Below, in pieces: positions 4,279-19,379 of a DNA stretch of 28,950 nt. Under the pieces are notes generated by a model, which saw only the letters and a list, made by a program, of their open reading frames with translations, had not been told where the DNA came from and ran no database searches. Made by a program: the position numbers and the translations under genes. Location: positions 1-28,950 of the IMG/VR virus record IMGVR_UViG_3300043442_000670. One strand, written 5' to 3'. Source of the DNA: a virus (Duplodnaviria; Caudoviricetes). The first letter of the stretch is position 1, and each line of letters begins with the position of its first letter.

Positions 4279-4330
4279 ACGCTACGGGTGCCGCAGCGCT
4301 GCGGCAGGGGTGGTGTAACGCATCGTCACA
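4279..4330 (-). promoter_or_regulatory. direct-repeat promoter (HLR1-like): TGTGAC-gatg-CGTTAC-N30-TAGCGT
   Basis: Same motif and spacing as six other sites; oriented toward ORF starting at 4255. Confidence 0.65.
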
Positions 4331-4670
4331 ACCGCAGGATGGCGCGCGCCTCTTCGTCGTTGTGGGCGATGCCGGCCAGGCCGCCGTGGCGGTGCACCAT
4401 GGCGATGAAGGCGAGCTGCTCAGGCGTGGGCCTGCTGCGGTCTTTGACCTCGATGGCGGTGAAGACGGCGAGCTGCTGGCCCACCATGTCGGGCGTGACG
4501 GTGATGGTGCGCAGTCCGATGAGATCGGATGAACCGGTGCAGAGGCCGTAGCGCACCAGGCGGCCGGTGGCGTCCTTGAGGGCCCCAGTGTTGTTGCGGA
4601 AAAGGCGTACTGGGCCGCGACTGAGCAAGCGGATGGTCTGTTGGATCCGGTTCTCATCGGAACGCGCCAT
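4326..4670 (-). CDS. VRR-NUC family PD-(D/E)XK nuclease
   Basis: 114 aa; E..IQ..I, FRNNTG, GSSDLIG, AIEVK, TPEQLAF motifs; next to helicase. Confidence 0.85.
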   Translation of the reverse strand: MARSDENRIQQTIRLLSRGPVRLFRNNTGALKDATGRLVRYGLCTGSSDLIGLRTITVTPDMVGQQLAVFTAIEVKDRSRPTPEQLAFIAMVHRHGGLAGIAHNDEEARAILRL

Positions 4671-6054
4671 GTTGTGTCCTGGCCCTGAGGATGTGATCGG
4701 TCCAGCCGCGAGAGTAGCCACGCTCCAGGCGGATGACTTCGAGCTCTTCGCGTGTGCGGGCCTTGCCGACCTGCTGCCGCTTGCGTTGTGCGATCACGGT
4801 GGCGGGGAGCTCCAGGAGGTTGCCATCGACGACGGTCAGCTCGCGGCGCTGAGTGGCGGGGAAGTCGAAGCCGCAGTCGACGCAGCTGGCGACGGTGGCG
4901 AGCATGGCTGCGAAGCACTGGGGGCAGACCTTGACGGGGAGAGCGTCTGAGGCTGCGCGCTTGCCGCGCTTGGTGCGGCCTTCGAGGCTCCAGTCGCGCG
5001 GGTCGGTGGGCCGGCCGTGGCGAAGCGTGTTGCCGACGTGATCGTTGACGATCGCGTGGCCCTTGCCGGGGCATGGGCGGAGCACGCGGCCGACCTGCTG
5101 GAGGTGCAGGCCCAGGCTGTCGGTGGGGCGGAGCAGGATCGCGCCGGTGACCGATGGGATGTCGGTGCCCTCGCTGATGATGTCGCAGGAGGTGAGCACC
5201 TTCAGCACGCCAGCGCCGAGGTCGTTGATGAGGCGGCGGCGTTCGCCGCGGTCGATCGAGCCATCGAGCATGGCGGCGCTGATGCCCTGAGCGCGGAAGG
5301 CCTCGGCAACGGCGTCGGCGTGAGCGACGGAGACGCAGAAGGCGATGGCGGTGCCGTTGTGCACCGGCTCGATGGTGCGGCGGTAGTGCGAGACGGCGTC
5401 GCCCATGGCCTGGCCCTGGCGCAGGCGGGCTTCGGCTTCTTCGTGGCCCTTGCGGGTGTCGAAGCGCTTGATGCCGTCGAGGTCGATGCCAGGCGGGGCG
5501 AAGATGCGCGCGGGCACGAGAAAGTCGTTGGCGGTGAGCCAGGCGGCGTCGGGGCCCTCGACCAGGGTCTCGAACTGATCGCCCAAACCGCGGCCGTCGA
5601 GGCGCTCTGGAGTCGCGGTGACACCCAGGACGTGAGCGCGGGGCATGGCGGCGAGCACCTTGGCCCAGGTGCCGGCGACCGCATGGTGGGCCTCGTCGAC
5701 GATCAGCAGCTGGAAGAAGTCGGCCGGGATGGTGTGGATCCGCCGAGCGAGGGTCTGGACGCTGGCGACCTGCACGCCCTGCGAGAGGTCCTGGCGGTAG
5801 GCGGCGGCGATGATGCCGTGGTTGCAGCCGATGGCGTGCAGCGAGCGGGATGCCTGATCGACGAGCTCCTGGCGGTGGACAAGGATGCAGACGCGGTTGC
5901 CGCGGATCGCGGCCTGCTCGGCGATGTAGACGAAGGTGTAGGTCTTGCCGCCGCCGGTCGGGAGGACAAACAGCACGCGGCGGTGGCCTGACTGATAAGC
6001 GCCGCGGATCTCAGCGACAGCAGCGGCTTGGAAGGGGCGGAGAGAGACAGCCAT
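4654..6054 (-). CDS. superfamily 2 DEAD/DEAH-box helicase with C-terminal Zn finger
   Basis: 466 aa; LPTGGGKT, DEAHH, TAT, SEGTDIP, QQVGRVLR, CPQC..CVDC. Confidence 0.92.
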   Translation of the reverse strand: MAVSLRPFQAAAVAEIRGAYQSGHRRVLFVLPTGGGKTYTFVYIAEQAAIRGNRVCILVHRQELVDQASRSLHAIGCNHGIIAAAYRQDLSQGVQVASVQTLARRIHTIPADFFQLLIVDEAHHAVAGTWAKVLAAMPRAHVLGVTATPERLDGRGLGDQFETLVEGPDAAWLTANDFLVPARIFAPPGIDLDGIKRFDTRKGHEEAEARLRQGQAMGDAVSHYRRTIEPVHNGTAIAFCVSVAHADAVAEAFRAQGISAAMLDGSIDRGERRRLINDLGAGVLKVLTSCDIISEGTDIPSVTGAILLRPTDSLGLHLQQVGRVLRPCPGKGHAIVNDHVGNTLRHGRPTDPRDWSLEGRTKRGKRAASDALPVKVCPQCFAAMLATVASCVDCGFDFPATQRRELTVVDGNLLELPATVIAQRKRQQVGKARTREELEVIRLERGYSRGWTDHILRARTQHGAFR

Positions 6055-6120
6055 GCAGGGGCCTGGGGGTGGGTTGACCGTGGCAGAAAGATCGCAGATT
6101 ATCCCGTGAAATCAATTAGT

Positions 6121-6182
6121 TGTAACAGTATGTGACGGTATGAAGCGGGAGGCGGAGTGATGTTCCGGGAGGCTTTTAGGGT
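6121..6182 (+). promoter_or_regulatory. direct-repeat promoter (HLR1-like, three repeats) in divergent intergenic region: TGTAAC-agta-TGTGAC-ggta-TGAAGC-N30-TAGGGT
   Basis: AT-richer gap between divergent operons; 30 nt from third (degenerate) hexamer to -10-like hexamer. Confidence 0.65.
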
Positions 6183-6214
6183 CAGGCCTGACCACCACTA
6201 TTCACAGGTGCCCC

Positions 6215-7024
6215 ATGCCTGACCTGACCCATCATCCGGGTCTGACGAACGAGGACTACCACCGGCTCAAGGCGGTCAGTCCCAGCCAGATCAAGGTGCT
6301 CGGGCGCAGCCCGCTGCACTACTTCGACCAGTTCCTGGCGGAGGACCGCGAGAAGCGTGAGCCGACGCCGGCGATGCTGATGGGCACCGCGCTGCACACG
6401 GCGGTGCTGGAGCCGGAGCTGTGGGACAGCACGATCGCTGTGCCGCCGCATTCGTTCGATCGCCGCAGCAAAGCCGGCCGCGAGCTGGCCGCCGAGTTCG
6501 AGCGCGAGAGCGCCGGGAAGGTCGTGCTCAGCCCCGAGGATGCCGACCAGGTGCGGCGGATGGCGGATGCTGTGCGCAGCCACCCGGCTGCCGGCTTCCT
6601 GCTGGAGCTGCCGGGTCGCCGCGAGGCGTCCTACACCTGGAAGGATCCAGCGACGGGGCTGGAGTGCAAGACGCGGCCGGATTGGCACAGCGAGGATCGG
6701 CGCATCGTCGTGGACGTCAAGACCACGCGCGACGCCAGCCGGGCTGAGTTCGCCAAGAGCATCGCCAACCTGGACTACCACGTCCAGGCGGCATGGAACC
6801 AGGACGCGATCGGCGCCGAGCAGTTCATCACGATCGCAGTCGAGAACACGCGGCCGTATGCGGTGGCGGTCTATCCCGCCAGTGGTGGGATGATCGCAGC
6901 CGGAATGCGGCGGATCGAGGCGGCGATGCTGCTGCTGGCCGAGTGCCATGCGAGCGGCCGGTGGCCGGGCTACGGCGACCTGGTGGCCGAGCCGATCGAG
7001 CTCCCTGGGTGGTGCCGTGACTGA
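6215..7024 (+). CDS. RecE/exonuclease VIII-like PD-(D/E)XK exonuclease (DUF3799-like)
   Basis: 269 aa; NEDYH..SPSQIK, GTALHTAVLEP, KTRPD, IVVDVKTT, YHVQAA motifs; upstream of RecT-like gene. Confidence 0.88.
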   Translation: MPDLTHHPGLTNEDYHRLKAVSPSQIKVLGRSPLHYFDQFLAEDREKREPTPAMLMGTALHTAVLEPELWDSTIAVPPHSFDRRSKAGRELAAEFERESAGKVVLSPEDADQVRRMADAVRSHPAAGFLLELPGRREASYTWKDPATGLECKTRPDWHSEDRRIVVDVKTTRDASRAEFAKSIANLDYHVQAAWNQDAIGAEQFITIAVENTRPYAVAVYPASGGMIAAGMRRIEAAMLLLAECHASGRWPGYGDLVAEPIELPGWCRD

Positions 7025-7211
7025 AGGCCGCTGGCTCACCACCCAGCAGCTGATCAAGCTGCACCGCGAGTCGTTCGCCGATGGCGGCCGCACGGTGGTG
7101 CAGATGCTCCGGCTCACTGCCGAGCAATACGACGAGGCAACGATGCCTCACCCCCGCCTCGACCAGATCGCTGATCAGATCAAGGCCATCCTCAACGAAC
7201 GACAGCAATGA
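7017..7211 (+). CDS. hypothetical protein (64 aa)
   Basis: GTG start overlapping exonuclease end; stop overlaps next ATG. Confidence 0.6.
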   Translation: MTEGRWLTTQQLIKLHRESFADGGRTVVQMLRLTAEQYDEATMPHPRLDQIADQIKAILNERQQ

Positions 7212-7951
7212 CTGAATCGACAGCACTCACGACGACCAGCCAGCAGCAGAGCCCCGGCGCGCTGGCGTTCCTTCACGATGGGGCCGCCTTCGAGCACCTG
7301 TGGAGGGTGGCGAAGGCGTTCAGCATGAGCGGGATGGTGCCACCGCACTTTCAGGGCAAGCCTGAGAGCTGCATGGTGGCGCTGATGTACGCCGAGCAGC
7401 TGGGCGAGCATCCGATGGTGATGTTCCAGGAGACGGGCGTGATCAACGGCCGGCCGAGCACCAGCGCCCGGTTCGCCATCGCCCGCGCCAACAAGTCGGG
7501 CCTGCTCCAGAGCCCGATCACCTGGACTGAGAAGGGCCAAGGCGACGCGCTGGAGGTGACGGCGAGCGCAACGCTGCGCGAGACGGGCGAGGTCGTGCAG
7601 GCCAGGGTCTCGATGAAGGAGGCCGCGGCTGACGGCTGGACGCGCAACCCGAAGTACAAGTCGATCCCTGGCCAGATGCTGCGTTGGCGGTCTGCGACAC
7701 GGCTGATCAACCTTTACCTGCCAGAGGTGTTGTTCGGTCTCGGCGTGCGCGAGGAAGTTGAGCAGGTAACGGTGCGCGACGCATCGCCGGCGCCGCAGAC
7801 TGATGGTTCGGTATTGGCGGATCTCAACCGCCAGATCGCTGCTGCAGCCCAGGAGCCGCCGGTGTCTGGCGAAGCCGAGGCTGTTCAAGAGACAGCGCCG
7901 GCTGACAATTCCATCCAAGCAGAAGTCGTCGATGCAGACGACCCGTTCTAA
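7208..7951 (+). CDS. RecT-like single-strand annealing recombinase
   Basis: 247 aa; AKAFSMSGMVPPHFQGKPESCMVAL..LG..P, VINGRP, KYKSIPGQMLRWRS..FPEVL-like motifs; RecE-SSAP-SSB synteny. Confidence 0.75.
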   Translation: MTESTALTTTSQQQSPGALAFLHDGAAFEHLWRVAKAFSMSGMVPPHFQGKPESCMVALMYAEQLGEHPMVMFQETGVINGRPSTSARFAIARANKSGLLQSPITWTEKGQGDALEVTASATLRETGEVVQARVSMKEAAADGWTRNPKYKSIPGQMLRWRSATRLINLYLPEVLFGLGVREEVEQVTVRDASPAPQTDGSVLADLNRQIAAAAQEPPVSGEAEAVQETAPADNSIQAEVVDADDPF

Positions 7952-7963
7952 GGAGTTCGGCCT

Positions 7964-8179
7964 ATGGGCAGTGCAGTATCAGCGTTCCTGACCTCGAAGG
8001 AGGTCGCAGACCGTTGGCGGCTGAGCGATCAGACGCTGGCGAACTGGCGATCAGCGGGCAAGGGCCCGCCATTCATCCGGGTTGGATCTCGGGTTCTCTA
8101 TCCCATCGAGGGGATCCACGCTTACGAGAAGCTCAGCCAGCAATGGCTGAGCAACGAACAACCACAACCATCAACATGA
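7964..8179 (+). CDS. excisionase/AlpA-like HTH DNA-binding protein
   Basis: 71 aa; FLTSKEVADRW.LS..TLANWRS.GKGPPFIRVGSRVLY. Confidence 0.85.
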   Translation: MGSAVSAFLTSKEVADRWRLSDQTLANWRSAGKGPPFIRVGSRVLYPIEGIHAYEKLSQQWLSNEQPQPST

Positions 8180-8697
8180 GCGAAATCATCAACACGCTGC
8201 TCCGCGCGAGCTCGCATCATTTCATCGGCCGCCTGGGCCGTGACCCTGAGGCGAAGTTCCTGCAGAACGGCAACAGCGTCTGCAACGCGAGCATCGGCAT
8301 CAACCGGCCGGGGTCGAAGAAAGACGACGGCCAGGATGCTGACTGGATCAAGCTGGAGATCTGGGGGGAGGACGGCCAGCGGTTCGCGGACACCTGCCGC
8401 AAGGGCCAGGAAGTGCATGTGGTGGGTCGTGTAAAGACTGACCGCTGGACTGATCGGAACACCGGCGCTGAGCGTGTGGCGCTGGTGTGCATCGTGCGGC
8501 AGTGGCAGCTGATCCAGCAGCCGCCTGCTGCTCCTGCTGCTCCGGCCGCCGCGCCTGCACCTGCTGCGCAGCCCGCGCACCTGGCCGCGGCCGGCTGGGC
8601 GCCGAACCCAGCGAACGGCACCGTGGCCGCCCAGCAGCCGCCGGCGTGGAACAGCGCACCGCTGGATCCGCCGGACGACGACGGCATCCCCTTCTGA
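8176..8697 (+). CDS. ssb: single-stranded DNA-binding protein
   Basis: GRLGRDPE, DWIKLEIWG, KGQEVHVVGRVKTDRWTD, Ala/Pro linker, acidic tail DDDGIPF. Confidence 0.92.
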   Translation: MSEIINTLLRASSHHFIGRLGRDPEAKFLQNGNSVCNASIGINRPGSKKDDGQDADWIKLEIWGEDGQRFADTCRKGQEVHVVGRVKTDRWTDRNTGAERVALVCIVRQWQLIQQPPAAPAAPAAAPAPAAQPAHLAAAGWAPNPANGTVAAQQPPAWNSAPLDPPDDDGIPF

Positions 8698-8698
8698 G

Positions 8699-9163
8699 GT
8701 GATCGAGCCTGAGTTCCTGGCGTCGCTGCGGCGGCGCCATCGGGCCGAGCTCGTGCTCGTGCTGGTGCAGCTGGAACAGTTGGCGCCCGGCTGGTGGCTG
8801 ACTCTTCAGGAGTTGGCCGACCAGCTGGGCACCGACCGGGCGACGCTGAACCGCAGCATCCGCAAGCTGGAGGACCTGGGCCTGCTGCGGCGGGCCTCGA
8901 TCAGCAACTGCGGCGGGACGTAGATCTGGTGGGCGCAGCGGTCTGAGGATGATGCGCCGCGGCCGGAGGATGAGCCGGCCTGGGTGCTGCGCGATGTGAA
9001 GCGGCGGCTCCAGCAGCGGGTGACGATCAGCGAGCGGTGGGAGTGGGCCAGGCGGGAGGGGATTCCGCGTCAGACGATGCGGAGCTTCCTGGCTGGCCAC
9101 CAGCGAGTGCTGCGTGAGCGGTGGGAGCTGGTGGCCACACCGCTCGATTGTTACAGTGTGTGA
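8699..9163 (+). pseudogene. MarR-like winged-HTH protein interrupted by in-frame TAG at 8921-8923
   Basis: TLQELADQLGTDRATLNRSIRKLEDLGLL HTH; frame stays open and coding-like for 79 more codons after TAG until TGA 9161-9163. Confidence 0.65.
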
Positions 9164-9199
9164 ACGACGCTAGGCGCTGCCGCGGTGGCGCCTGATGAT
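9149..9199 (+). promoter_or_regulatory. direct-repeat promoter (HLR1-like): TGTTAC-agtg-TGTGAA-N29-GATGAT
   Basis: Shared motif and spacing; followed by GGGAG-GCGA-CTCCC hairpin at 9208-9221. Confidence 0.6.
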
Positions 9200-9254: not shown

Positions 9255-9488
9255 ATGGATCTCCTTCAGCAGATCGGCAGCGACATCGAGACCCAGATTC
9301 GCAACGGCTGCGGCGCTGCGATCGAGTGGACCTTCCGCACGGCGGATCGCTTCACGATCAGCGGCGACTGCGTGGCTGTCAGCCGCGCGGTGCTGTTCTG
9401 CATCGAGCACGATCTCTGCCGGATCGAGGACGACACGGTGTACGACGCCGAGCTGGACATGAGCTTCGCCTACATGAAGGCGGCCTGA
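9255..9488 (+). CDS. hypothetical protein (77 aa)
   Basis: GC3-rich ORF downstream of predicted promoter. Confidence 0.7.
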   Translation: MDLLQQIGSDIETQIRNGCGAAIEWTFRTADRFTISGDCVAVSRAVLFCIEHDLCRIEDDTVYDAELDMSFAYMKAA

Positions 9489-9498
9489 TCAGCACACA

Positions 9499-9519
9499 GC
9501 CCCGGGCAACCGGGGCCAT
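9499..9519 (+). repeat. GNRA-loop hairpin GCCCCGG-GCAA-CCGGGGC, copy 1
   Basis: 21-nt identity with 17623-17643; 10 nt after a stop codon. Confidence 0.75.
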
Positions 9520-9535
9520 TCATTTCATCACCGAC

Positions 9536-9784
9536 ATGACCAACGACAACACCCTGCTCGGCCGCTGCCTGGTGGCCTACGAGGAAGCCTTCGAAGAGGC
9601 CATCACCAGCCAGACGGTCAACCCAATGAGCCGCCGCCGTGGCGTCGCTGCGGTGCTGGAGCACCTGGCGGCCGAGATCATCGTGATGCACCAGCGCGAG
9701 CCGCGCCTGACCGTCCACGAGCTGGCGCGGCGGCTGACGCTCGAAGCGGCCGGCGAGCTGGCTGGATGGGAGGTGGACGCGTGA
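9536..9784 (+). CDS. hypothetical protein (82 aa)
   Basis: ATG 9536; stop overlaps GTG of next gene. Confidence 0.7.
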   Translation: MTNDNTLLGRCLVAYEEAFEEAITSQTVNPMSRRRGVAAVLEHLAAEIIVMHQREPRLTVHELARRLTLEAAGELAGWEVDA

Positions 9785-12051
9785 AGTATTCCGCCTTCCT
9801 CGCTTCGAAATCAACCAGCTGCCCCGCTGTTGGTTTTGACCCGCAGCAGTTCACCGCGCCGCTGTTTCCCTTTCAGCGCGACATCGTGACCATGGCCTGC
9901 CGTGTTGGCAGGTTTTGCATCTGGGCTGACTGCGGCATGGGCAAGACCGCCATGCAGCTTGAGTGGGCCCATCAGGTGCATCAGCACACCGGCGGCAACG
10001 TGCTGGTGCTGGCGCCACTGGCCGTGGCGCACCAGACCGTGCGCGAAGGCATCAAGTTCGGCATCCCATGCGCGTTCGCCGCAACGCAAGCCGACGTGCA
10101 GTCCGGCATCACGATCACCAACTACGAAAAGCTCAGTCATTTCGACCCAGCTGTCTTCGATGGCGTGGTGCTGGACGAGAGCAGCATCCTCAAGGCGTAC
10201 ACCGGCAAGATCCGCAACCAGATCATCGAGTCGTTCGCGCAGACGCCATTCCGCCTGGCCTGCTCAGCAACGCCAGCACCGAATGACCACATGGAGCTCG
10301 GCAACCATGCTGAGTTCATCGGCGTCATGACCCGCACCGAGATGCTGGCCATGTTCTTCGTGCATGACGGCGGTGACACCAGCAAGTGGCGGCTCAAAGG
10401 CCACGCGCAGTCCAAGTTCTGGGAGTGGGTCTGCAGTTGGGCGGTCACCATCCGCAAGCCGTCAGACCTGGGCTACGACGACGGCAGCTTCATCCTGCCT
10501 GAACTGCAGATCAGTGACTGCACGGTTGAGACACCACGCGATGCGATAGCAGACGATGCCGGCCAGATGGCGCTGTTTGCCATGGAAGCCCGCACGCTCA
10601 ACGATCAGCGGCAGGTGCGGAAGGCATCGCTGCAGATGCGCGTCGATGCTGCGGCGGCATTGGCCAACGACATTATTGAGCAGTGGCTGATCTGGTGCGA
10701 CCTGAACGATGAATCAAAGGCGCTCACTGCTGCCATTGATGGCGCGGTCGAGGTCAGCGGGTCCGATTCAGATGATCACAAGCAGCAAGCTGCAATCGAC
10801 TTCCAGGATGGCAAAATCCGCGTCCTGGTCAGCAAGCCGAGCATCTTCGGCTTTGGCCTCAACTTCCAGGGCTGCCACAACGTCGCATTCGTTGGCCTCT
10901 CACACAGCTACGAGGCGTTCTATCAGGCGATCCGTCGCTGCTGGCGATTCGGTCAACAGCAGCCCGTCAACGCTCACATCATCTACGACGTGGCAGAAGG
11001 CCGCGTAATCGACAACATCCGCCGCAAAGAGGCGGACAGCATCGCCATGGCTGAATCAATGGTCGCCATCATGAAGCAATCCACCATGGAGCAACTCAAA
11101 AAGATCCAGCGCCAGGTTGCCCCACACGTCACTGAACACAAGTCAGGCGAAAACTGGGACATGTACATGGGTGACTGCGTTGAAAGCATCAAGCAGCTCG
11201 ACTCAGACAGCGTGCACTACAGCATCTTCAGTCCGCCGTTCGCGTCGCTCTACACCTACTCGAACAGCGACCGCGACATGGGCAACAGCCGCAACGATCA
11301 GGAGTTCTTTGATCACTTCGTCTTTCTGGCCAAAGAGCTGCATCGCGTGATGATGCCCGGCCGGCTGATCAGTTTCCACTGCATGAACCTGCCCAGCAGC
11401 AAAGAGCGCGACGGCTTCATTGGCGTGAAGGACTTCCGCGGTGACATGCTGCGCATCTTCCAGGCTGCTGGCTTCGTCTTCCATAGCGAGGTGTGCATCT
11501 GGAAGGATCCCGTCACCGCCATGCAGCGCACCAAGGCGATCGGGCTGCTCCACAAGCAGATCCGCAAGGACTCAGCCCTGAGCCGCCAGGGCATCCCTGA
11601 CTACCTGGTGACCGTGCGCAAACTGGGCGACAACCCTGAGCCATGCGCTGGCCCATTCACTGAGTTTGCCGGTGAGAATCCGCCAGCCAAGACTGGTGAT
11701 CCGATCAAAGACAGCATCAACATCTGGCAGCGTTACGCCAGCCCCGTGTGGATGGACATCAACCCATCCGACACGCTGCAATACCGCAGCGCGCGCGCCA
11801 ATGAAGACGAGCGGCACATCTGCCCGCTGCAGCTTGAAGTGATCCGTCGCGGCCTTCAGCTGTGGAGCAACCCGGATGATCTGGTGCTCAGTCCGTTTGC
11901 CGGAATTGGAAGCGAAGGCTACGTCAGCCTTGAGATGGGCCGTCGGTTCGTTGGATTCGAGCTGAAGCCCAGCTACTTCAACTGCGCAGTCAACAACCTG
12001 CGAGCAGCTGAAGATACGAAGCAAACCACTCTGCTGAGCATGGCCGCATGA
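9781..12051 (+). CDS. SNF2-like helicase fused to beta-class N4-cytosine/N6-adenine DNA methyltransferase
   Basis: ADCGMGKT, DESS, SAT, FGLNFQ, QAIRRCWRFGQ helicase motifs, then GDCVE, SPPF (motif IV) and SPFAGIGS (motif I). Confidence 0.88.
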   Translation: MKYSAFLASKSTSCPAVGFDPQQFTAPLFPFQRDIVTMACRVGRFCIWADCGMGKTAMQLEWAHQVHQHTGGNVLVLAPLAVAHQTVREGIKFGIPCAFAATQADVQSGITITNYEKLSHFDPAVFDGVVLDESSILKAYTGKIRNQIIESFAQTPFRLACSATPAPNDHMELGNHAEFIGVMTRTEMLAMFFVHDGGDTSKWRLKGHAQSKFWEWVCSWAVTIRKPSDLGYDDGSFILPELQISDCTVETPRDAIADDAGQMALFAMEARTLNDQRQVRKASLQMRVDAAAALANDIIEQWLIWCDLNDESKALTAAIDGAVEVSGSDSDDHKQQAAIDFQDGKIRVLVSKPSIFGFGLNFQGCHNVAFVGLSHSYEAFYQAIRRCWRFGQQQPVNAHIIYDVAEGRVIDNIRRKEADSIAMAESMVAIMKQSTMEQLKKIQRQVAPHVTEHKSGENWDMYMGDCVESIKQLDSDSVHYSIFSPPFASLYTYSNSDRDMGNSRNDQEFFDHFVFLAKELHRVMMPGRLISFHCMNLPSSKERDGFIGVKDFRGDMLRIFQAAGFVFHSEVCIWKDPVTAMQRTKAIGLLHKQIRKDSALSRQGIPDYLVTVRKLGDNPEPCAGPFTEFAGENPPAKTGDPIKDSINIWQRYASPVWMDINPSDTLQYRSARANEDERHICPLQLEVIRRGLQLWSNPDDLVLSPFAGIGSEGYVSLEMGRRFVGFELKPSYFNCAVNNLRAAEDTKQTTLLSMAA

Positions 12052-12323
12052 ACGACGTCACCAGCACCATCGAAGAGCGCGGCAGCCGCTACGGCCGCTT
12101 CATCGGCAATTCCTTCATCACCCAGCAGCTCAAGTGCGTCATCCGTCATGCGCTGGAAGCACGCGAAAGGCGCCTGGCTGACGATCAGCAGGAAGCGCTC
12201 GACATGATCTGCCACAAGATCGGCCGGATCATCAACGGCGACCCCGATTATGCCGACAGCTGGCACGACATCGCTGGCTATGCGCAGCTGGTGGCAGATC
12301 GACTGAACGGCGAGGAGCGATGA
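12048..12323 (+). CDS. DUF6378-like phage protein
   Basis: 91 aa; ERGSRYG, EALDMICHKIGRIINGDPDYADSWHDIAGYA. Confidence 0.75.
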   Translation: MNDVTSTIEERGSRYGRFIGNSFITQQLKCVIRHALEARERRLADDQQEALDMICHKIGRIINGDPDYADSWHDIAGYAQLVADRLNGEER

Positions 12324-12544
12324 CCACCGACCACTGCGTCGTGGATCTCACTAGCCAGCCGCCGCGGTTCCGCTGCGAGCTGTGCGGCGCTGAGCAGATG
12401 CTGCAGCTGCCAATCTCACTGCACGAAGCCGCATGGCTGGGTGAGCAATGGATCGAGGATCACGCCGCTTGCGCTGAGCCAGAAGACGACTGGGACAGCC
12501 ACCCATCACTGACCGCTGAACAACGCAACCCGACCCTGCAATGA
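12320..12544 (+). CDS. hypothetical protein (CxxC, possible Zn-binding)
   Basis: 74 aa; ATGA overlaps at both ends; CELC...H..C. Confidence 0.65.
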   Translation: MTTDHCVVDLTSQPPRFRCELCGAEQMLQLPISLHEAAWLGEQWIEDHAACAEPEDDWDSHPSLTAEQRNPTLQ

Positions 12545-12873
12545 AGCGCATCTTTCTCCTCATCGCGCTGCTCCACCAGCTCACGCCGCCTGCTGATGCT
12601 GGTGGCCGCGCTGTGACCGCGACGGTGTACGACGGCTGGTTTCACGGCCGCACCACCTACTGCGGCGGCACGTACCGGCACTGGGGCGTGTCGGCGGCTC
12701 ATCCTTGGCTGCCGTGCGGCACACGCGTCAGGGTCAGCCACCAGGGCCGCGTGCTCACGGTGCCGGTGACCGATCGCTGCGACTGCAGCTCGATCGACCT
12801 GAGCGCCGGTGCTGCCCATCGCCTGGGTGTGCCGCTCGACGGCATCGCAACTGTTCGCATCTCGCACCAATGA
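12541..12873 (+). CDS. RlpA-like double-psi beta-barrel protein (lytic transglycosylase family) with signal peptide
   Basis: ATVY..WFHGRTT.CG, SAAHPWLPCGTRVRV, VPVTDR, IDLS..AA..LG motifs; hydrophobic N-terminus. Confidence 0.85.
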   Translation: MKRIFLLIALLHQLTPPADAGGRAVTATVYDGWFHGRTTYCGGTYRHWGVSAAHPWLPCGTRVRVSHQGRVLTVPVTDRCDCSSIDLSAGAAHRLGVPLDGIATVRISHQ

Positions 12874-13376
12874 CTGATCACAAAGCAACGCCTGAGCAGT
12901 GGGCCATGCTCGAAGAGCGGAGCGCCCCTGAATACGACAACACCATCCTCGAACTGCGCGCCAGGGTCGAGGCGCTGGAGAGCAAATACGAAACCATGCG
13001 CCTGGCCACGCTGGAATGGGGCAAGGACGTAGACAAGCTGATGTGCTGGAGCGATCAGCACCTGCAGCGGATCATGGCGCTGGAAGCTGCGCAACAGCAG
13101 CCTGAGCCGATTGACGAGGAAGAGAACGACCGCCGGTTTCATGCGTGCATGGACCTGATCCGCAACGCCACGCCGGAGCAGATCCGTGCGGCGGCCGGGT
13201 TGCCCGAGCGCAGCTCGCTGTTGGAGCGGGTGGCTGACGCCATCAACAGTGAAGCCGGGTCGTGCTTCGCCACGATTGAAGCCCGCGCCGCGATCGGCGA
13301 GGTGGCGGCAACGCTCAAAGCCCAGTGCTTCGAGCACGCCGCCAACTGGCTTGAGCAGGAAGCCGATCGTGGCTGA
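12870..13376 (+). CDS. hypothetical protein (168 aa, coiled-coil)
   Basis: ATGA overlap; ILELRARVEALE heptads. Confidence 0.7.
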   Translation: MTDHKATPEQWAMLEERSAPEYDNTILELRARVEALESKYETMRLATLEWGKDVDKLMCWSDQHLQRIMALEAAQQQPEPIDEEENDRRFHACMDLIRNATPEQIRAAAGLPERSSLLERVADAINSEAGSCFATIEARAAIGEVAATLKAQCFEHAANWLEQEADRG

Positions 13377-13593
13377 TCTCTCCCCCGCTGCCCGCGCCAT
13401 TGTGGAAGCGTTCCGCGAGCGCCACGCGGAGACCATGCGTCCAGGCCCGTTCCCCGACCGCTGGATGGAAGCCTGCCTAGCGGCCGCTCTCACCGCCCTG
13501 GCGGTCCGCATCAAGGGCGCTCCTGACATCCGCCAAGACGTGCTCGACATCGTCAACGAGCTCGAGGAGCTCGATCTCTACGACCTAACCTGA
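13369..13593 (+). CDS. hypothetical protein (74 aa)
   Basis: GTG start overlapping upstream gene; GC3-rich. Confidence 0.65.
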   Translation: MADLSPAARAIVEAFRERHAETMRPGPFPDRWMEACLAAALTALAVRIKGAPDIRQDVLDIVNELEELDLYDLT

Positions 13594-13701
13594 CCCCCAG
13601 CCGGGTCGGCTCCACCCGTAAGGGCGAGCGCCGCCGCAGTCGAGCCTGGGGTCTCGGCTGACGCAGTGTGCGGTATCGGAGGCCCGGCCCTTCTTCTCCT
13701 G

Positions 13702-14202
13702 ATGACCATTGACTGCCCGAGCTGCAGAAGCAGCCACACGCAGATGATCGAAACTCGCCCCGTTCGCACTGGCGGCCGCCGGCGCCGCCATCACTGCCAC
13801 GAGTGCTCCCACCGCTGGACGACATGGGTCGGCGAGCGACCGTTTCAGGGCCGCGACCCCAACGCCCGCAAGGGCTACCGCTCGAAGCCGCCAATGACCG
13901 AGGACGAAGTGCGCCTGGTGCTCACGTCGCCGCTCAGCAGCGTCAAGCTCGCCCGCGAGATCGGCCGATCGAAGGAGGCGGTCGCCGCGATCCGACGCGG
14001 CACTTTGCACGCGCGCATACTGCCCGAGCTGCCGCGTCGCCAGGTGCAACAACGCCCCGATCCAAGTGTGTCGTGCCATGCCTGCGAGCACTGGGAAGGC
14101 GATCGCTGCGGGATGGGCTTCCCGGATCCGCTCGAAGAGGGTCCAGCGTTCGCTGCTGACTGCAGCCTCTATGAGGTGAGCCAGTCGAGCAGCTTGGCTT
14201 GA
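13702..14202 (+). CDS. NrdR-like Zn-ribbon protein with HTH-like middle and Cys-rich C-terminus
   Basis: CPSC...IETR...RRRRHHCHECSHRWTT resembles the NrdR N-terminal ribbon; no ATP-cone; SSVKLAREIGRSKEAVAAIRRG; CHAC..C..C. Confidence 0.7.
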   Translation: MTIDCPSCRSSHTQMIETRPVRTGGRRRRHHCHECSHRWTTWVGERPFQGRDPNARKGYRSKPPMTEDEVRLVLTSPLSSVKLAREIGRSKEAVAAIRRGTLHARILPELPRRQVQQRPDPSVSCHACEHWEGDRCGMGFPDPLEEGPAFAADCSLYEVSQSSSLA

Positions 14203-14456: not shown

Positions 14457-14496
14457 GGGCTGCGTGCTGCTGCGGCCAGCCTAGGGGATTCCGTGG

Positions 14497-14548
14497 TGTG
14501 AACGATTGTGACAACGGCATCGCCATCAGCTGCTGCAGTGCCGATGAT
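14497..14548 (+). promoter_or_regulatory. direct-repeat promoter (HLR1-like): TGTGAA-cgat-TGTGAC-N30-GATGAT
   Basis: Shared motif and spacing; restarts the plus-strand operon after the antisense HNH gene. Confidence 0.65.
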
Positions 14549-14572
14549 TGGCCCGTCCGCATCCCACTTACC

Positions 14573-14731
14573 ATGCGATCGACTATTGCCGCCGCCGCCC
14601 TATGGGCAGCGATCATCAGCGGGTTCTGGTTCGCGTTGACCAGCCGCCTCACCGACATGACGCGGCGCGACTGCCGCGCCGGAGCCGAGCTGGCCTGCAA
14701 GCAACTGCAGCGCGACGGAGTGAAGCTGTGA
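14573..14731 (+). CDS. small membrane/secreted hypothetical protein (52 aa)
   Basis: N-terminal hydrophobic helix, DCRAG..LAC motif; stop overlaps next start. Confidence 0.65.
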   Translation: MRSTIAAAALWAAIISGFWFALTSRLTDMTRRDCRAGAELACKQLQRDGVKL

Positions 14732-14928
14732 GCTACGCACTCATGCGCGGCGGCCGCTGGATCACAGCGCCTCAGGGCGATGGCGATCCGATCCCGCCGG
14801 TGCTCGCCATCGACAACGATCAGGCCCAAGCCTGGCGCGCGCCGAACATCGACGTCGCCATCGAGCGCCAGCAGCTGCTTCGGCGGTGCTGGGGCTGGGC
14901 CACTGAAATCCGCGTCATCCGACCATGA
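14728..14928 (+). CDS. hypothetical protein (66 aa)
   Basis: GTGA/ATGA overlaps with both neighbours. Confidence 0.6.
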   Translation: MSYALMRGGRWITAPQGDGDPIPPVLAIDNDQAQAWRAPNIDVAIERQQLLRRCWGWATEIRVIRP

Positions 14929-15143
14929 GCCGCGTCTACCTGCTCAACTACCAGCCCTGGCGCTTCGAGCCAGGTGATCACGTCTACGTCCGCACCTGGC
15001 CCCAGGATGAGCGCGCCGTCGTGCTCTGTCAGCTCGCTGCTCACAGCTGGCCTCACTACCTGGTGATGGACAGCGTGGGCATTGAGTGGCGAGTGAGCCA
15101 GCTGGAGCTCTCAAGCCGGCCGATCGTCACGCTGTCGACATGA
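14925..15143 (+). CDS. hypothetical protein (72 aa)
   Basis: ATGA overlaps both ends; beta-rich FEPGDHVYV. Confidence 0.7.
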   Translation: MSRVYLLNYQPWRFEPGDHVYVRTWPQDERAVVLCQLAAHSWPHYLVMDSVGIEWRVSQLELSSRPIVTLST

Positions 15144-15463
15144 AGCGCGAGCGCCTCCATGCCCGTGGCCTCTGCATCGAGACCGGGCGCGACTGGAACG
15201 GCCGCTGGTTTATCGCCTGGAAGCCGGACGTGAGCCAGCTGTTCCGCGACACCAGGGCCATGCTGCGCTGGTTGGCGTGGCCGGTGAAAACGCCAACAGG
15301 CGACAGCATCCGCTCCTGGATCGCCAGCCTGGAGGCGGCCGACGCCGAACACGTGGCCGGCTCTGCAGGGCCAGCAAGAGAGGAGGTGCTCGCCACCGGC
15401 TTCGGGCCCGAGTGCCACCACGACGAGACCGACCCCAACCACAACACCCGCACGATCATCTGA
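15140..15463 (+). CDS. hypothetical protein (107 aa)
   Basis: ATGA overlap at start, TGATG at end. Confidence 0.7.
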   Translation: MKRERLHARGLCIETGRDWNGRWFIAWKPDVSQLFRDTRAMLRWLAWPVKTPTGDSIRSWIASLEAADAEHVAGSAGPAREEVLATGFGPECHHDETDPNHNTRTII

Positions 15464-15621
15464 TGACCAACCGCGACTGCGACCCCGCTGAGCAGCAGGC
15501 TCGGCAGGACGAACTGGAGCGCCTCTACGCCAAGGACGGCCGCCACAACCACGATCACCCGATGCACTGCTTCTACACCGGGCTGGCCGTCGAACACGCC
15601 CAGCAGGAGGCGAGCAAGTGA
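15463..15621 (+). CDS. hypothetical protein (52 aa)
   Basis: TGATG coupling; RQDELERLY..DGR...HP....YTGL. Confidence 0.65.
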   Translation: MTNRDCDPAEQQARQDELERLYAKDGRHNHDHPMHCFYTGLAVEHAQQEASK

Positions 15622-16136
15622 CCATCCTTGCCGACTGGGAGATCGTCGCTCTTTGCGAAGGCGGCATGGTGACGCCGTTCGAGCGCGAGCTCGTGAACCC
15701 GGCCAGCCTCGACGTGCGTCTTGGTGGCACGCTGTTGATCGAGAGCGTCTCCAGCCCCGAGGCCTGGTGCCCCTACCCGCTGCACCAGCACACCGAAGCG
15801 AAGCCCTACCTGCTGGTGCCCGGGCAGTTCGTGCTGGCCCAGACGGTCGAGACCTTCCACCTGCCGACGAACATCGCCGCGCAGTTCATGCTCAAGTCGA
15901 GCCGGGCCCGCTCCGGCCTTGAGCACCTGATGGCGGGCTACTGCGACCCAGGCTGGAGCGGCTCGGTGCTGACACTGGAACTGCACAACAGCCGCCAGCT
16001 GCACCCTGTCGCCCTCTGGCCCGGCATGAAGATCGGCCAGATGGTGTTCCACCGGATGAGCGCCACGCCGCTGCGCGACTACCGCATCACCGGCCGCTAC
16101 AACGGGGACCAGCAGGTGACCGCCAGCAAGGGGTGA
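15618..16136 (+). CDS. dcd: dCTP deaminase
   Basis: 172 aa; ILADWEI, NPASLDVRLG, PGQFVLAQT.E, KSSRARSGL, AGYCDPGW.G..LTLEL.N, PGMKIGQMVF. Confidence 0.92.
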   Translation: MTILADWEIVALCEGGMVTPFERELVNPASLDVRLGGTLLIESVSSPEAWCPYPLHQHTEAKPYLLVPGQFVLAQTVETFHLPTNIAAQFMLKSSRARSGLEHLMAGYCDPGWSGSVLTLELHNSRQLHPVALWPGMKIGQMVFHRMSATPLRDYRITGRYNGDQQVTASKG

Positions 16137-16140
16137 GATC

Positions 16141-16338
16141 GTGTCGCGGCGCGAGTGGAACACGCCGGTGCGGGAACCTTGGAACCCGCTCATCCACCAG
16201 CTGCTCCAGGCGGTCGATCGCCACAACCGTCAGCTGTTCATCACAGGTGATCCGTGGCACGCGGACAAGGCGGAGCAGCTGCGTCAGTATGTGCGCGATC
16301 TCAAAAGCTGGATCCACCAGCAGGAGGGACGCGAGTGA
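16141..16338 (+). CDS. hypothetical protein (65 aa)
   Basis: REWNTPVREPWNPLIH..L.A.D.H...LR.YV..LK.WI. Confidence 0.7.
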   Translation: MSRREWNTPVREPWNPLIHQLLQAVDRHNRQLFITGDPWHADKAEQLRQYVRDLKSWIHQQEGRE

Positions 16339-16424
16339 GCCTGCATCAGTTCGTGCTCCTGGCGCTCAGCTACTCGATCATGTGCGCCATCATTCTGTGG
16401 ATGGCGTCGCGTGTGCTGCCATGA
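16335..16424 (+). CDS. 29-aa single-pass membrane peptide (MSLHQFVLLALSYSIMCAIILWMASRVLP), not in ORF track
   Basis: GTGA and ATGA overlaps with both neighbours; GGAGG upstream. Confidence 0.55.
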   Translation: MSLHQFVLLALSYSIMCAIILWMASRVLP

Positions 16425-16594
16425 CTGACGACCCGAAGGTGATCGGCCGCTGGGAGATCAACGGCGGCGCGATCGAGCAGCTGGAGAACGCAGAGGGCCA
16501 GCTCTACTACCGCGCCTGCGCGCACGGCTACTGCCGTTATGCGGAAGATCTGTGGTGCGCCGAGCTCTACTTGTCGCAGCTGCTGGCGCGCTGA
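16421..16594 (+). CDS. hypothetical protein (57 aa)
   Basis: MTDDPKVIG...YYRACAHGYCRYAEDLW; ATGA overlap. Confidence 0.65.
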   Translation: MTDDPKVIGRWEINGGAIEQLENAEGQLYYRACAHGYCRYAEDLWCAELYLSQLLAR

Positions 16595-16671
16595 GCGAGG
16601 ATCTCGGCCGCCCAGGCTTCGTGCTCGGCGGTAACGGGGTAGCCGGCGGCGCACTCGATCTCGGCCACCTG

Positions 16672-16920
16672 GGCGACCAGCTGGTGGGCTACCGGCGGAT
16701 GTGGCTGGCCCTGCTGAGCGACGCCGGGGTGAGCGACCTGCGGATCCACGACTTGCGGCACACGTTCGCCAGCTATGCGCTGAGCGGCGGGCAGACGCTC
16801 GGCACGGTGGGCCAGCTGCTGGGGCACAGGAGTGCGCAGACGACGACGCGCTACGCCCACCTGATCGACGACGCAGCGCGGCGCGCGGTGGCGCAGCTCA
16901 GCGACGATCTGGGTGTGTGA
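16672..16920 (+). pseudogene. C-terminal remnant of a tyrosine integrase
   Basis: LRIHDLRHTFAS, LLGH, TTTRYAHL catalytic motifs in only about 80 codons; N-terminal domains and first catalytic Arg absent. Confidence 0.85.
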
Positions 16921-16966
16921 AGAGATGTGACATTCACGCAGCGTGGCGCCTGCTGGCCCTTAATGT
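16916..16966 (+). promoter_or_regulatory. direct-repeat promoter (HLR1-like): TGTGAA-gaga-TGTGAC-N29-TAATGT
   Basis: Shared motif and spacing; followed by GGGCG-GCGA-CGCCC hairpin 16975-16988. Confidence 0.7.
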
Positions 16967-17008
16967 GTGGTCATGGGCGGCGACGCCCTGTACCCCGCAC
17001 CTGGACAA

Positions 17009-17203
17009 ATGAATACCCGCACCGCCATCGAGGCGCTTGGCCAGATGGCCACAGTGATCGGCTCCGCCGAATCAGTTGTGGCTGCCTTGCAGGCACTGCG
17101 TGACGGCACCACTGAAGATCAGTGGGATCAGCTCTGCGACAACGAGCTGATCGACGCCCTCATCTGTGCCTGCATGGATCTGGAAGACGAACTCGATGAC
17201 TGA
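17009..17203 (+). CDS. small acidic hypothetical protein (64 aa)
   Basis: Own predicted promoter and terminator; very acidic C-terminus. Confidence 0.7.
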   Translation: MNTRTAIEALGQMATVIGSAESVVAALQALRDGTTEDQWDQLCDNELIDALICACMDLEDELDD

Positions 17204-17208
17204 GCACC

Positions 17209-17233
17209 GGGGGCCTGCGGGCCCCCTTTTTTT
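17209..17233 (+). terminator. intrinsic terminator
   Basis: GGGGGCC-TGCG-GGCCCCC stem-loop followed by T7. Confidence 0.9.
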
Positions 17234-17248
17234 GTGCCTGATCGAGAT

Positions 17249-17300
17249 TGTTACGGATTGCGACATGCACGCGGCGTGACGCAGTGGCTTGGGGCATGAT
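17249..17300 (+). promoter_or_regulatory. direct-repeat promoter (HLR1-like): TGTTAC-ggat-TGCGAC-N30-CATGAT
   Basis: Shared motif and spacing; directly after a terminator. Confidence 0.7.
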
Positions 17301-17434
17301 GGATGCATCGGGCCGAGAGCCCAGAACCTGGACAACCGCATATTCGCGGGGCATCGACCCCGATCCCGGTGGTGGCCCTCACCCAGGCACCGCTGAGTCC
17401 CGCCTGGGGGCTCAACCACACACCGGAGATCGAC

Positions 17435-17614
17435 ATGGACGATGCAACCCGCGCCCTCCTCGCTGAGATCGAGGCGGACCGCCAGGAGACCGAACAGGTA
17501 CTCGCTGAGCTGGACGCCGCGATTGAGGCGTACGGACGCTCGATCGAGCGGGGCCTGGCACTGGCCGCTGAAATGCGGAACGTGGCTGCCCAGCTCGAAG
17601 AGTGGTTCTGCTGA
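17435..17614 (+). CDS. small acidic coiled-coil protein (59 aa)
   Basis: GGAG RBS before ATG 17435; helical, E/D-rich. Confidence 0.7.
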   Translation: MDDATRALLAEIEADRQETEQVLAELDAAIEAYGRSIERGLALAAEMRNVAAQLEEWFC

Positions 17615-17622
17615 GGGCACCG

Positions 17623-17643
17623 GCCCCGGGCAACCGGGGCCAT
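17623..17643 (+). repeat. GNRA-loop hairpin GCCCCGG-GCAA-CCGGGGC, copy 2
   Basis: 21-nt identity with 9499-9519; 8 nt after a stop codon. Confidence 0.75.
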
Positions 17644-17648
17644 CAGTT

Positions 17649-17700
17649 TGTGAAGGATTGCAACATGCCCACGGCGTTGCATCACTCGCGCCTCTACCTT
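17649..17700 (+). promoter_or_regulatory. direct-repeat promoter (HLR1-like): TGTGAA-ggat-TGCAAC-N30-TACCTT
   Basis: Shared motif and spacing; followed by leader hairpin 17708-17731. Confidence 0.7.
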
Positions 17701-19362: not shown

Positions 19363-19379
19363 TGGAATATCCTTCCAGG

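Follow-up and report, generated by a model that had tools for sequence, protein, structure and literature searches.

Seven Repeat Sites and the Genes Behind Them

The window (the whole 28,950-nt stretch analysed here, DNA of an uncultured lake phage) raises the question of what switches on the genes that lie behind its seven tandem repeats, and which protein reads these repeats. The initial annotation listed seven hexamer-N4-hexamer sites accompanied by -10-like hexamers, and all of them were located at the coordinates and on the strands it gave. Site 1 (4315..4330, minus strand, TGTGAC-N4-CGTTAC) overlaps the stop codon of the VRR-NUC gene and has an orthologous site in relatives. It is near-palindromic and also scores on the plus strand, at 4314. 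The hexamer TAGCGT (4279..4284, minus strand) lies 30 nt from it, with a predicted +1 at G4272, and the putative promoter faces ORF 4010-4255, ORF 3613-3966 and the primase gene (934-3609).

Site 2 (6121..6146, plus strand) consists of three half-sites with a 10-bp period, TGTAAC, TGTGAC and TGAAGC, at positions 6121, 6131 and 6141. The spacing to TAGGGT (6177..6182, plus strand) had been counted from the third repeat; the 30 nt stand for pair 2+3, but pair 1+2, which is the stronger of the two, sits at 40 nt. Across 12 aligned relatives (a thirteenth, L024, was omitted because of poor alignment), pair 1+2 is kept in eight, pair 2+3 in three and all three half-sites in one. This promoter faces the genes for exonuclease VIII, RecT, an HTH_17 protein, SSB and a winged HTH protein (6215-8923).

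The remaining sites are all on the plus strand. Site 3 (9149..9199, TGTTAC-N4-TGTGAA, 29 nt, GATGAT; predicted +1 A9206) faces small ORFs, a helicase-methyltransferase gene and accessory genes (9255-14202), and site 4 (14497..14548, TGTGAA-N4-TGTGAC, 30 nt, GATGAT; predicted +1 G14555) faces small ORFs and a dCTP deaminase gene (14573-16594). Site 5 (16916..16966, TGTGAA-N4-TGTGAC, 29 nt, TAATGT; predicted +1 A16973) overlaps the stop codon of an integrase remnant and faces ORF 17009-17203. Site 6 (17249..17300, TGTTAC-N4-TGCGAC, 30 nt, CATGAT; predicted +1 A17307) faces ORF 17435-17614. Directly upstream of it is an intrinsic-terminator-like hairpin with a T run (17209..17233, plus strand); a terminator scan of the whole window gave five such structures against a mean of 5.6 in shuffles, i.e., no excess. 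Site 7 (17649..17700, TGTGAA-N4-TGCAAC, 30 nt, TACCTT; predicted +1 A17707) follows a GC hairpin at about 17625-17642 and faces ORF 17769-18182.

Statistical Support and Conservation

A pattern drawn from the seven sites matched the window exactly seven times; 600 Markov simulations averaged 0.29-0.53 matches and never reached seven, a comparison that is circular given the origin of the pattern. For a non-circular set, 32 other loci (527 kb; 29 IMG/VR relatives and three cultured phages) were used. Conservation in related phages had been proposed as a check, and it was borne out: hexamer pairs with a distance of 10 bp numbered 69, no other distance between 6 and 40 had more than nine, and the repeat is conserved while the spacer varies freely. 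Among 56 held-out non-redundant sites, a -10-like hexamer (TANNNT, GATGAT, CATGAT or GAAGAT) was found at 29 or 30 nt in 39 and at 40 nt in four, 43 in total, and four further distances had single counts. At the predicted +1, a position that entered no search pattern, A stands in 32 of the 50 sites and in 28 of the 43 that were held out.

The absence of a -35 consensus and of sites in the late block, both remarked on in the initial annotation, was confirmed. No conserved columns were found between -41 and -18 (below 0.4 bits per column), and the best match to TTGACA in 35 sites was 4/6. The late/structural block (18.3-28.9 kb) had no matrix match of 6 bits or more. In six relatives that are 90-100% complete, the exact pattern is confined to one 9-14 kb arm around RecT. 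Since contigs from other runs carry the same sites, the seven sites are not an assembly artefact: these contigs are identical or near-identical over six sites, and the site at 6121 is covered by an other-run contig with 12 differences in 606 bases.

The counts also distinguish the repeat from familiar promoter elements. The TTGACA-like -35 at 16-18 nt before the -10 of an ordinary sigma70 promoter is lacking at the repeat sites. The Pho box bound by PhoB/SphR is a direct repeat with an 11-bp period, and only three pairs were found at 11 bp versus 69 at 10 bp. CRP-type sites are inverted repeats (TGTGA-N6-TCACA) and NtcA-type sites have the form GTA-N8-TAC, whereas the second half of the phage element is a direct repeat, as seen in the seven sequences and in the column counts.

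Similarity to HLR1

In the RpaB regulon, HLR1 is formed by two imperfect octamer direct repeats two nt apart (PMC6525291). The phage sites differ from the HLR1 consensus by 1-3 mismatches per half-site, a recount that agrees with the figure first given, and favour TGTGAA/TGYGAC, which is more G-rich than the published consensus. As a check against known RpaB sites, published Synechocystis HLR1 18-mers were scored in reverse complement on a matrix built from phage sites only. All ten that were tried scored 15-22 bits, like the phage sites (15-27 bits), and shuffles scored about -18.

The position of the repeat points in the same direction. Activating-class HLR1 sites are expected to centre 45-66 nt upstream of a mapped transcription start; counted from the predicted starts, the phage sites centre at about -51 or -61. 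Published activating RpaB sites centre near -51 (PMC6525291, section 8); the Synechocystis psaA site occupies -59..-42 and those of isiA and psaM -60..-43 (PMC6525291, Table S3), and the predicted phage registers equal these three. The far register of the phage, -70..-53, is that of psaD in the host genus, and in Synechocystis the corresponding sites lie at -67..-50 and -69..-52 (PMC6525291). With the gene strand taken from the slr/sll convention, seven of 11 activating rows examined in Table S3 run against the direction of transcription, like the phage sites, three are in the forward orientation and psaD has both (PMC6525291). In 10-bp repeat, sequence and predicted centre near -51, the sites resemble the activating HLR1 of psaA, psaK1, psaM, psaF and isiA in Synechocystis 6803 (Riediger et al. 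2019, PMC6525291). They differ in belonging to a phage genome, in preceding replication, recombination and small unknown genes, and in their more G-rich half-sites.

The Likely Host and Its Photosystem I and Phycobilisome Promoters

The protein matches indicate that the host is likely a Cyanobium-type picocyanobacterium. The primase matches Synechococcus phage S-H1 at 65% and the helicase-methyltransferase matches S-CBS3 gp40 at 85%, the best RecT matches in the genome collection are in Synechococcaceae MAGs (88% and 72%), and the runs with this phage type are from freshwater and an estuary. Against a cyanobacterial host, one Rhodobacteraceae MAG also has a RecT relative and a site-bearing contig. 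RpaB is encoded in all six candidate-host genomes examined, namely G018 (388.6 bits, cut-off 330), which is simply one member of the candidate host genus, and five of five further genomes.

The same layout was found in the host genus at psaC, psaD, psaE, psaF, psaK, psaM (in G018 alone), apcA, apcE and cpcB. For psaD, the best site lies exactly 40 nt from TAGCTT in 28 of 28 host-genus genomes, and for psaK a site lies at 30 nt in 19 of 23. When G018 was scanned with the phage matrix and phage spacings, nine of 11 photosystem I (PSI) and phycobilisome promoters, a list fixed after those promoters had been inspected, ranked in the top 2% of 2351 genes and ten in the top 5%. The corresponding top-2% counts were 0/11 for the opposite strand, 0-2/11 for seven shifted spacer sets and 0-1/11 for six permuted matrices, one of which reached a rank-test P of 0.002. 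A weak psaA site of G018, 30 nt from TATACT, is just beyond the scanned window. The opposite orientation near the gene start, i.e., the repressing class, was found in G018 at high-light genes, namely three hli units, two psbA copies, an RpaB paralogue and a sigma factor.

The host signal is considerably weaker than that of the phage. Scores at host PSI sites are 4-12 bits, well short of those at phage sites, and the matrix had fewer matches in G018 than permuted matrices did (35 vs 54-156). None of the three highest-scoring G018 sites belongs to a recognised RpaB target, four of seven hli-motif genes ranked low, three of five psbA copies and petF scored poorly, and psbB-like cases were weak. 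The strict phage pattern showed no excess over its reversed control in 61 cyanobacterial genomes, and three TANNNT matches of it in MAG G001 resemble phage cassettes, not host promoters. A plain matrix ranking placed psb30, psbU, psaD, psaF, two hli genes, the RpaB paralogue and the sigma factor in the G018 top 75; because a permuted matrix brought up that sigma factor too, along with psbO, rubredoxin and ndhC, only the spacing-aware test was used as evidence. An nblA label for a small G018 gene behind a high-scoring site was rejected, as the Pfam NblA search was empty in 26 genomes and the NCBIfam search was empty on the protein.

The seven repeats are conserved promoter-like elements that copy the sequence, orientation and spacing of picocyanobacterial PSI and phycobilisome promoters.

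Proposed Regulation by Host RpaB

The initial annotation read the repeats as plausible RpaB sites. Host, HLR1 match and PSI-like spacing make this putative identity well supported by the sequence, but a paralogue of RpaB is also a candidate binder. On balance, we consider it probable that the seven repeats act as activating-class HLR1 promoters run by host RpaB.

We suggest the following scheme. An RpaB dimer would bind head-to-tail at -60..-43 or so, or at -70..-53, a helical turn upstream of that, and recruit the host RNA polymerase to phage promoters with a -10 box and without a -35 box, transcription starting at the predicted position 7 nt after each -10. In this way, RpaB would activate the primase operon, a second exo-recT-ssb promoter and five accessory blocks. 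From what is known of RpaB in Synechocystis and S. elongatus (PMC6525291), the promoters are predicted to be active under low to moderate light and as dusk approaches, and to drop once high light releases RpaB. We infer that the phage promoters may be gated by light in this manner.

The proposal that replication, recombination and accessory genes form one regulon is not supported in that form: primase, exo-recT-ssb and the accessory blocks have sites, but a conserved promoter of the ordinary -35/-10 kind precedes the helicase-VRR-NUC operon. An ordinary, sigma70-like -35/-10 pair was found only in two extra promoters at 6074-6115. The first, TTGACC-17-GATTAT (6074..6102, plus strand), is missing from the initial list, faces exo from upstream of the repeat array and is conserved in 13 of 14 aligned sequences. 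The second, TTGATT-16-GATCTT (6088..6115, minus strand), overlaps it and faces the helicase (4654-6054) and VRR-NUC (4326-4721) genes; it was taken from the alignment, not listed by the promoter scan, and its -35 plus the A and T of its -10 are invariant or nearly so. Since both the helicase-VRR-NUC and the exo operons have ordinary promoters of their own, the regulon is not all-inclusive. Helicase expression and basal exo-recT-ssb expression from these promoters would provide a basal layer, with an RpaB-boosted layer above it. Transcription from the upstream exo promoter would pass through the array at 6121-6146, which might serve as a switch from one exo promoter to the other.

Other Candidate Readers of the Sites

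It is unlikely that the paralogue, an SrrA-like protein, reads the sites alone or in turn with RpaB, in which case the promoters could stay or come on in high light. A second G018 protein does pass the RpaB cut-off (363.7 bits), four of the five further genomes have one 64-69% identical to RpaB, and the upstream region of the G018 paralogue gene has a site in the repressing position. The G-rich TGTGAA/TGYGAC of the phage might also suit another protein, but host psaD itself uses TGTGAA, the layout equals that of PSI promoters, a class that RpaB targets in Synechocystis (PMC6525291), and none of the matches listed for G002, an incomplete MAG, is in the 64-69% range.

A phage-encoded protein acting on the repeats as a middle-gene activator is less likely still. 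Three candidate DNA-binding proteins, HTH_17 (7964-8179), winged HTH (8699-8923) and a zinc-ribbon protein (13702-14202), are encoded in the window, and the phage sites exceed the host ones in strength and uniformity. Nevertheless, all three genes are downstream of site-bearing promoters, the host PSI promoters share the layout, and HTH_17 was found in two and winged HTH in one of five site-bearing records and neither in the second phage lineage described below. No HTH gene is common to all site carriers, and both an OmpR-type DNA-binding domain and sigma-70 region 2 are absent from all five near-complete phage records.

There is slightly less again to be said for direct contact of the repeat by RNA polymerase, through the alpha subunit or a group 2 sigma factor, as a general strong-promoter element working without a separate activator. 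Its helical-phase registers would fit, as would the common -10 variants GATGAT and GAAGAT (20 of 45 sites), but the repeat agrees with a sequence-specific site of the OmpR family for which RpaB binding has been published, and the reversed copies near high-light gene starts would be left unexplained. Least probable of all, in our opinion, are decoys that mainly titrate RpaB from host PSI and antenna promoters as phage DNA multiplies: each genome carries seven high-scoring sites, above host sites on the phage matrix, but a decoy needs no fixed orientation, fixed -10 spacing or A at +1. The phage sites may nonetheless have a side effect on host genes when promoters run by RpaB are their main role.

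Relation to Known Systems and Other Phages

The HLR1 sites noted earlier in cyanophages are reportedly repressing hli-gene sites, carried with host-derived hli genes, whereas the seven described here precede core early genes and, by their predicted starts, have the activating register. The occurrence of HLR1 in cyanophage genomes is mentioned, with reference to Riediger et al. 2018, in PMC6525291. We found no paper on an activating HLR1 regulon over phage replication genes. The host PhoB, also an OmpR-family two-component regulator, controls cyanophage genes, with DNA polymerase responding (Rihtman et al. 2024, PMC10976474); that case concerns another signal (phosphate) and selected genes of a T4-like phage and is experimental, whereas ours is known from sequence. 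If RpaB control is true, the host two-component control acting on cyanophages would include, besides phosphate (PhoB), the master regulator for light, and its reach would go beyond accessory genes to those for primase and recombination.

Cyanophage transcripts follow light and host photosynthesis (Liu et al. 2019, PMC6628666). These authors tie light dependence to photosynthetic activity, and their main text does not contain the words "promoter" or "transcription factor" (PMC6628666). Such transcription is usually put down to host energy. A copied PSI promoter design would offer a concrete regulatory route: it names one host protein, gives the sites to the exact base and predicts the direction of the response, the promoters being on under low light and falling within minutes under high light. 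For high-GC picocyanobacteria, a working RpaB matrix can also be built from the phage sites.

A collection scan with one exact variant gave 79 loci, of which 16 share window proteins, nine belong to a second lineage and 54 are unclassified and possibly due to chance. The nine loci have clusters of such promoters at 28-29 nt; the one locus tested has DNA similarity to S-CBS4, and this S-CBS4-like lineage is the one without the HTH_17 and winged HTH genes. Among cultured phages, S-CBS2 and S-CRES3 being covered only in part, counts at the true spacings with a 6-bit threshold were not clearly above those at control spacings, and S-CBS3, S-H1, KBS-S-2A and S-CBP1 had no convincing site. In S-CBS1, S-CBS4 and S-SRP01, single top-scoring sites head early operons, only the places of these top matches being suggestive. 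It is conceivable, if rather doubtful, that several unrelated cyanophage lineages have independently put their first promoters under host RpaB, with a light/redox signal then gating the start of infection, beyond energy supply; were this so, the sites in these three phages would make the idea testable now. In RNA runs X19 and X20 (share 0.11 and 0.09), a relative about 90% alike was found, and contigs span the divergent region.

Conservation of the Repeat Sites

All seven sites proposed by the initial annotation, in which two hexamers separated by 4 nt precede a -10-like hexamer, were found at 4330 (minus strand), 6121, 9149, 14497, 16916, 17249 and 17649 (sites 1-7), and these repeats are real and conserved. 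The pattern derived from them matches these seven sites alone, with 0.3-0.5 matches expected, a count that is circular because the pattern was taken from those same sites. In 32 other loci, which were held out, 69 hexamer pairs occurred at 10 bp, and none of the other distances between 6 and 40 accounted for more than nine. Among the non-redundant held-out sites, the -10-like hexamer followed at 29 or 30 nt in 39 of 56 and at 40 nt in four. Between -41 and -18 the spacer was unconstrained, each column carrying less than 0.4 bits, and it contained no -35 element, in line with the earlier remark that no -35 consensus is evident. The seventh base past the -10 hexamer, a base not selected by any pattern, was A in 32 of 50 sites. 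As had also been noted, no such site was seen in the late block: no matrix score reached 6 bits among the structural genes, and in each of six near-complete relatives the exact pattern was confined to one 9-14 kb arm. Other runs yielded the same sequence at the sites.

Gene Content, Relatives and Host

The window, a virus record of 28,950 bases, encodes a primase, a VRR-NUC nuclease, a helicase, exonuclease VIII, RecT, an HTH_17 protein, SSB and a winged-HTH protein, together with a helicase-methyltransferase, a dCTP deaminase, an integrase remnant, lysis genes and a contractile P2-like tail. Among the best named relatives, the primase was 65% identical to that of Synechococcus phage S-H1, the exonuclease 41-46% to those of Synechococcus phages S-H1, KBS-S-2A and S-CBS1, and the helicase-methyltransferase 85% to that of Synechococcus phage S-CBS3; the nearest relatives of the tail sheath were from proteobacterial phages. 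The best RecT matches in the genome collection, all on short contigs, came from two Synechococcaceae MAGs (88% and 72%) and one Rhodobacteraceae MAG (70%). The sequencing runs containing this DNA were for the most part freshwater and estuarine. Based on the named phage relatives, the RecT-bearing MAGs and the habitat, we infer that the host is a Cyanobium-type picocyanobacterium.

Only the C-terminal ~70 residues are left of a tyrosine integrase (16552-16920). Full integrase frames of 415-425 aa were present in three of five near-complete relatives and none in the other two; therefore, the family seems to comprise both temperate and integrase-less members. The winged-HTH frame (8699-8923) stops at TAG, and coding-style sequence carries on beyond it (8923-9100). 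Since the counterpart in a relative (G076) is a longer open frame of 286 aa, this gene may be truncated in the window. The end of the tail operon (18284-20658) includes genes for PAAR, lysozyme, 2OG-Fe(II) oxygenase and C39-peptidase endolysin proteins.

Comparison with Cyanobacterial HLR1 Sites

The seven elements are best read as activating-class HLR1 promoters, HLR1 being the DNA site of the cyanobacterial light/redox regulator RpaB. On a scoring matrix built from 50 sites, exclusively from phages, published HLR1 18-mers scored 15-22 bits in 10/10 tried, and the phage sites themselves 15-27. For 11 published activating elements, we assumed that the gene strand follows the slr/sll-type locus-tag convention. 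Of these rows of Table S3 (PMC6525291), seven are reversed with respect to transcription, like the phage sites, one is present in both orientations and three are forward. The passages of that paper dealing with HLR1 positions place activating elements around -51 and repressing ones close to the start (Riediger et al. 2019, PMC6525291). The positions of the psaA element (-59 to -42) and of those of isiA and psaM (-60 to -43) given there coincide with the phage registers of 29 and 30 nt, assuming a -10 hexamer at -12 to -7.

Judging from sequence, a host RpaB dimer probably binds each repeat and recruits the host polymerase to a promoter with a -10 element only. The RpaB-boosted layer would consist of the primase, the second exonuclease promoter and the accessory blocks, lying over a basal layer. 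We infer RpaB binding, the start sites and the direction of light control, the last of these from the behavior of RpaB in two model species, where, in the relevant passages of PMC6525291, its binding drops in high light and it activates dusk genes. Given RpaB binding, real light gating has about an even chance, the alternative being that RpaB merely serves as a handy strong activator.

HLR1 occurrences in cyanophage genomes have already been reported, as stated in PMC6525291, and the portions considered of two further papers describe cyanophage genes under host PhoB control (PMC10976474) and light-dependent cyanophage transcription, the latter with no promoter mechanism in the relevant passages (PMC6628666). 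Among the listed papers, drawn from a literature with few subscription titles, none described a phage regulon activated by RpaB. Activating-class HLR1 promoters on a phage would add to the known control of phage genes by host regulators.

Probable RpaB Targets in Candidate Host Genomes

Upstream of psaD, the best matrix site lay exactly 40 nt from TAGCTT in 28/28 genomes of the candidate host genus (that of the MAG G001), and upstream of psaK it lay 30 nt from the -10 hexamer in 19/23. In G018, a genome of the candidate genus, 2,400,000 of 2,415,533 bases were covered and 2351 genes, predicted by an in-house caller, were scored with the phage matrix, spacers of 29, 30 and 40 and a [TG]ANNNT hexamer. 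The top 0.8% included psaC, psaD, psaE, psaF, psaK, psaM, apcA, apcE and cpcB; psaI/L ranked at 2.4%, and psaA was missed, its weak site lying 2 nt outside the scanned region. Out of a test list of 11 promoters, which was set after those promoters had been inspected, the control runs brought none into the top 2% on the opposite strand, 0-2 with seven sets of shifted spacers and 0-1 with six permuted matrices. Three hli units and two psbA copies had the motif in reverse and near the gene, as did the RpaB paralogue and a sigma factor.

Other results speak against this match: host sites were far weaker than phage sites on the phage matrix, total matches in G018 were fewer than with permuted matrices, and the strict phage pattern showed no enrichment across 61 genomes. 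None of the three top matches in G018 was at a known target, and low scores were obtained for 4/7 hli-motif genes and 3/5 psbA copies. In G018, the phage matrix scored highest (21-23 bits) at two sites (L124:6801-6953 and L124:9787-9939) that lie upstream of similar 51-aa genes, which had no match in Pfam or NCBIfam and are possibly unrecognised RpaB targets or island genes.

It is unlikely that the paralogue of RpaB, by itself or alternating with RpaB, reads the phage sites. Both proteins scored above the same cut-off in G018, and among five further genomes RpaB was found in all five and the paralogue in four.

Other Phages and Phage-Encoded Factors

A collection-wide scan with one exact variant gave 79 loci: 16 with proteins common to the window, nine of a second lineage and 54 unclassified. 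The second lineage comprises contigs of up to 75 kb with 51-55% GC, and the one member tested showed DNA similarity to S-CBS4. In its promoters, several per locus, the repeat lies 28-29 nt ahead of TATTGT or TACATT. In the loci L137, L139, L146, L152, L180, L209, L210 and L215 of this lineage, a GC hairpin plus a run of Ts often falls inside the spacer between repeat and -10 hexamer, forming a terminator nested within the promoter.

An activator encoded by the phage is a still less probable reader of the sites. HTH_17 was found in 2/5 site-bearing records and a winged HTH in 1/5, neither of them in the second-lineage records tested. Searches of five records each for an OmpR-type domain and for a sigma factor found neither. 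A host factor accounts for all of these results and for the second lineage, but a phage factor does not. Slightly less probable again is direct contact of the repeat by the polymerase itself, and least probable of all is a role of the sites as decoys for RpaB.

The frame at 13702-14202 encodes a zinc-ribbon protein that belongs to the NrdR N-terminal type in Pfam and possibly carries an HTH after the ribbon. Since relatives lack a sigma factor, it is a candidate late-gene activator; it presumably resembles P2 Ogr, and a Pfam search gave no Ogr match.

In cultured phages, site counts at true spacings were not above those at control spacings. The top sites of S-CBS1 (26292, minus strand; 11.1 bits, 30 nt), S-SRP01 (4028, plus strand; 12.7 bits, 30 nt) and S-CBS4 (68656, plus strand; 20.5 bits, 41 nt) precede an early or small-gene operon, and no convincing site was found in S-CBS3, S-H1, KBS-S-2A and S-CBP1. 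Four matrix matches of 12-20 bits cluster in S-CRES3 where converging gene blocks leave a non-coding gap (L367:30132-30375); two of these matches lie 41-42 nt from -10-like hexamers.

Promoter Layout and Cassettes

Site 6121 is an array of three half-sites. Among 12 relatives, the pair at 40 nt from TAGGGT persists in eight, the pair at 30 nt in three and the full set of half-sites in one; thus, lineages shift between two registers that differ by one helical turn. The intergenic gap around the array also contains a conserved rightward ordinary promoter (TTGACC-17-GATTAT, 6074-6102) and, overlapping it, a conserved leftward one (TTGATT-16-GATCTT, 6115-6088). Their predicted transcription starts are near 6109 (plus strand) and 6081 (minus strand), and those of the repeat-bearing promoters are G4272, about 6189, A9206, G14555, A16973, A17307 and A17707. 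Because of these two ordinary promoters, the single regulon proposed earlier for the replication and recombination genes holds only in part: helicase-VRR-NUC has no site in the activating register, and an ordinary promoter gives exo-recT-ssb another entry. The whole ~110-bp gap between the helicase and exonuclease genes (6074-6182), with its two opposed overlapping promoters, array and activator-type promoter, is kept in relatives and has the look of a switch.

Sites 1 and 5 each overlap the end of the preceding gene at its stop codon, and sites 6 and 7 are each preceded by a hairpin. Contigs of two runs fuse the site 6 repeat to the site 7 -10 hexamer with exactly 30 nt kept between them (joints 17282-17686, 17282-17687 and 17268-17698, with short flanks), a hint of portable cassettes selected for spacing.

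In contigs from other runs, the gene flanked by sites 6 and 7 is missing (17268-17698) with the 30-nt spacing intact, and one contig carries a different gene directly after the site 3 leader (9221), both pointing to cassette exchange. An identical GC hairpin, CCCCGGGCAACCGGGG, stands 3' of two small genes (9499-9516 and about 17625-17642) and is possibly a cassette terminator or processing site.
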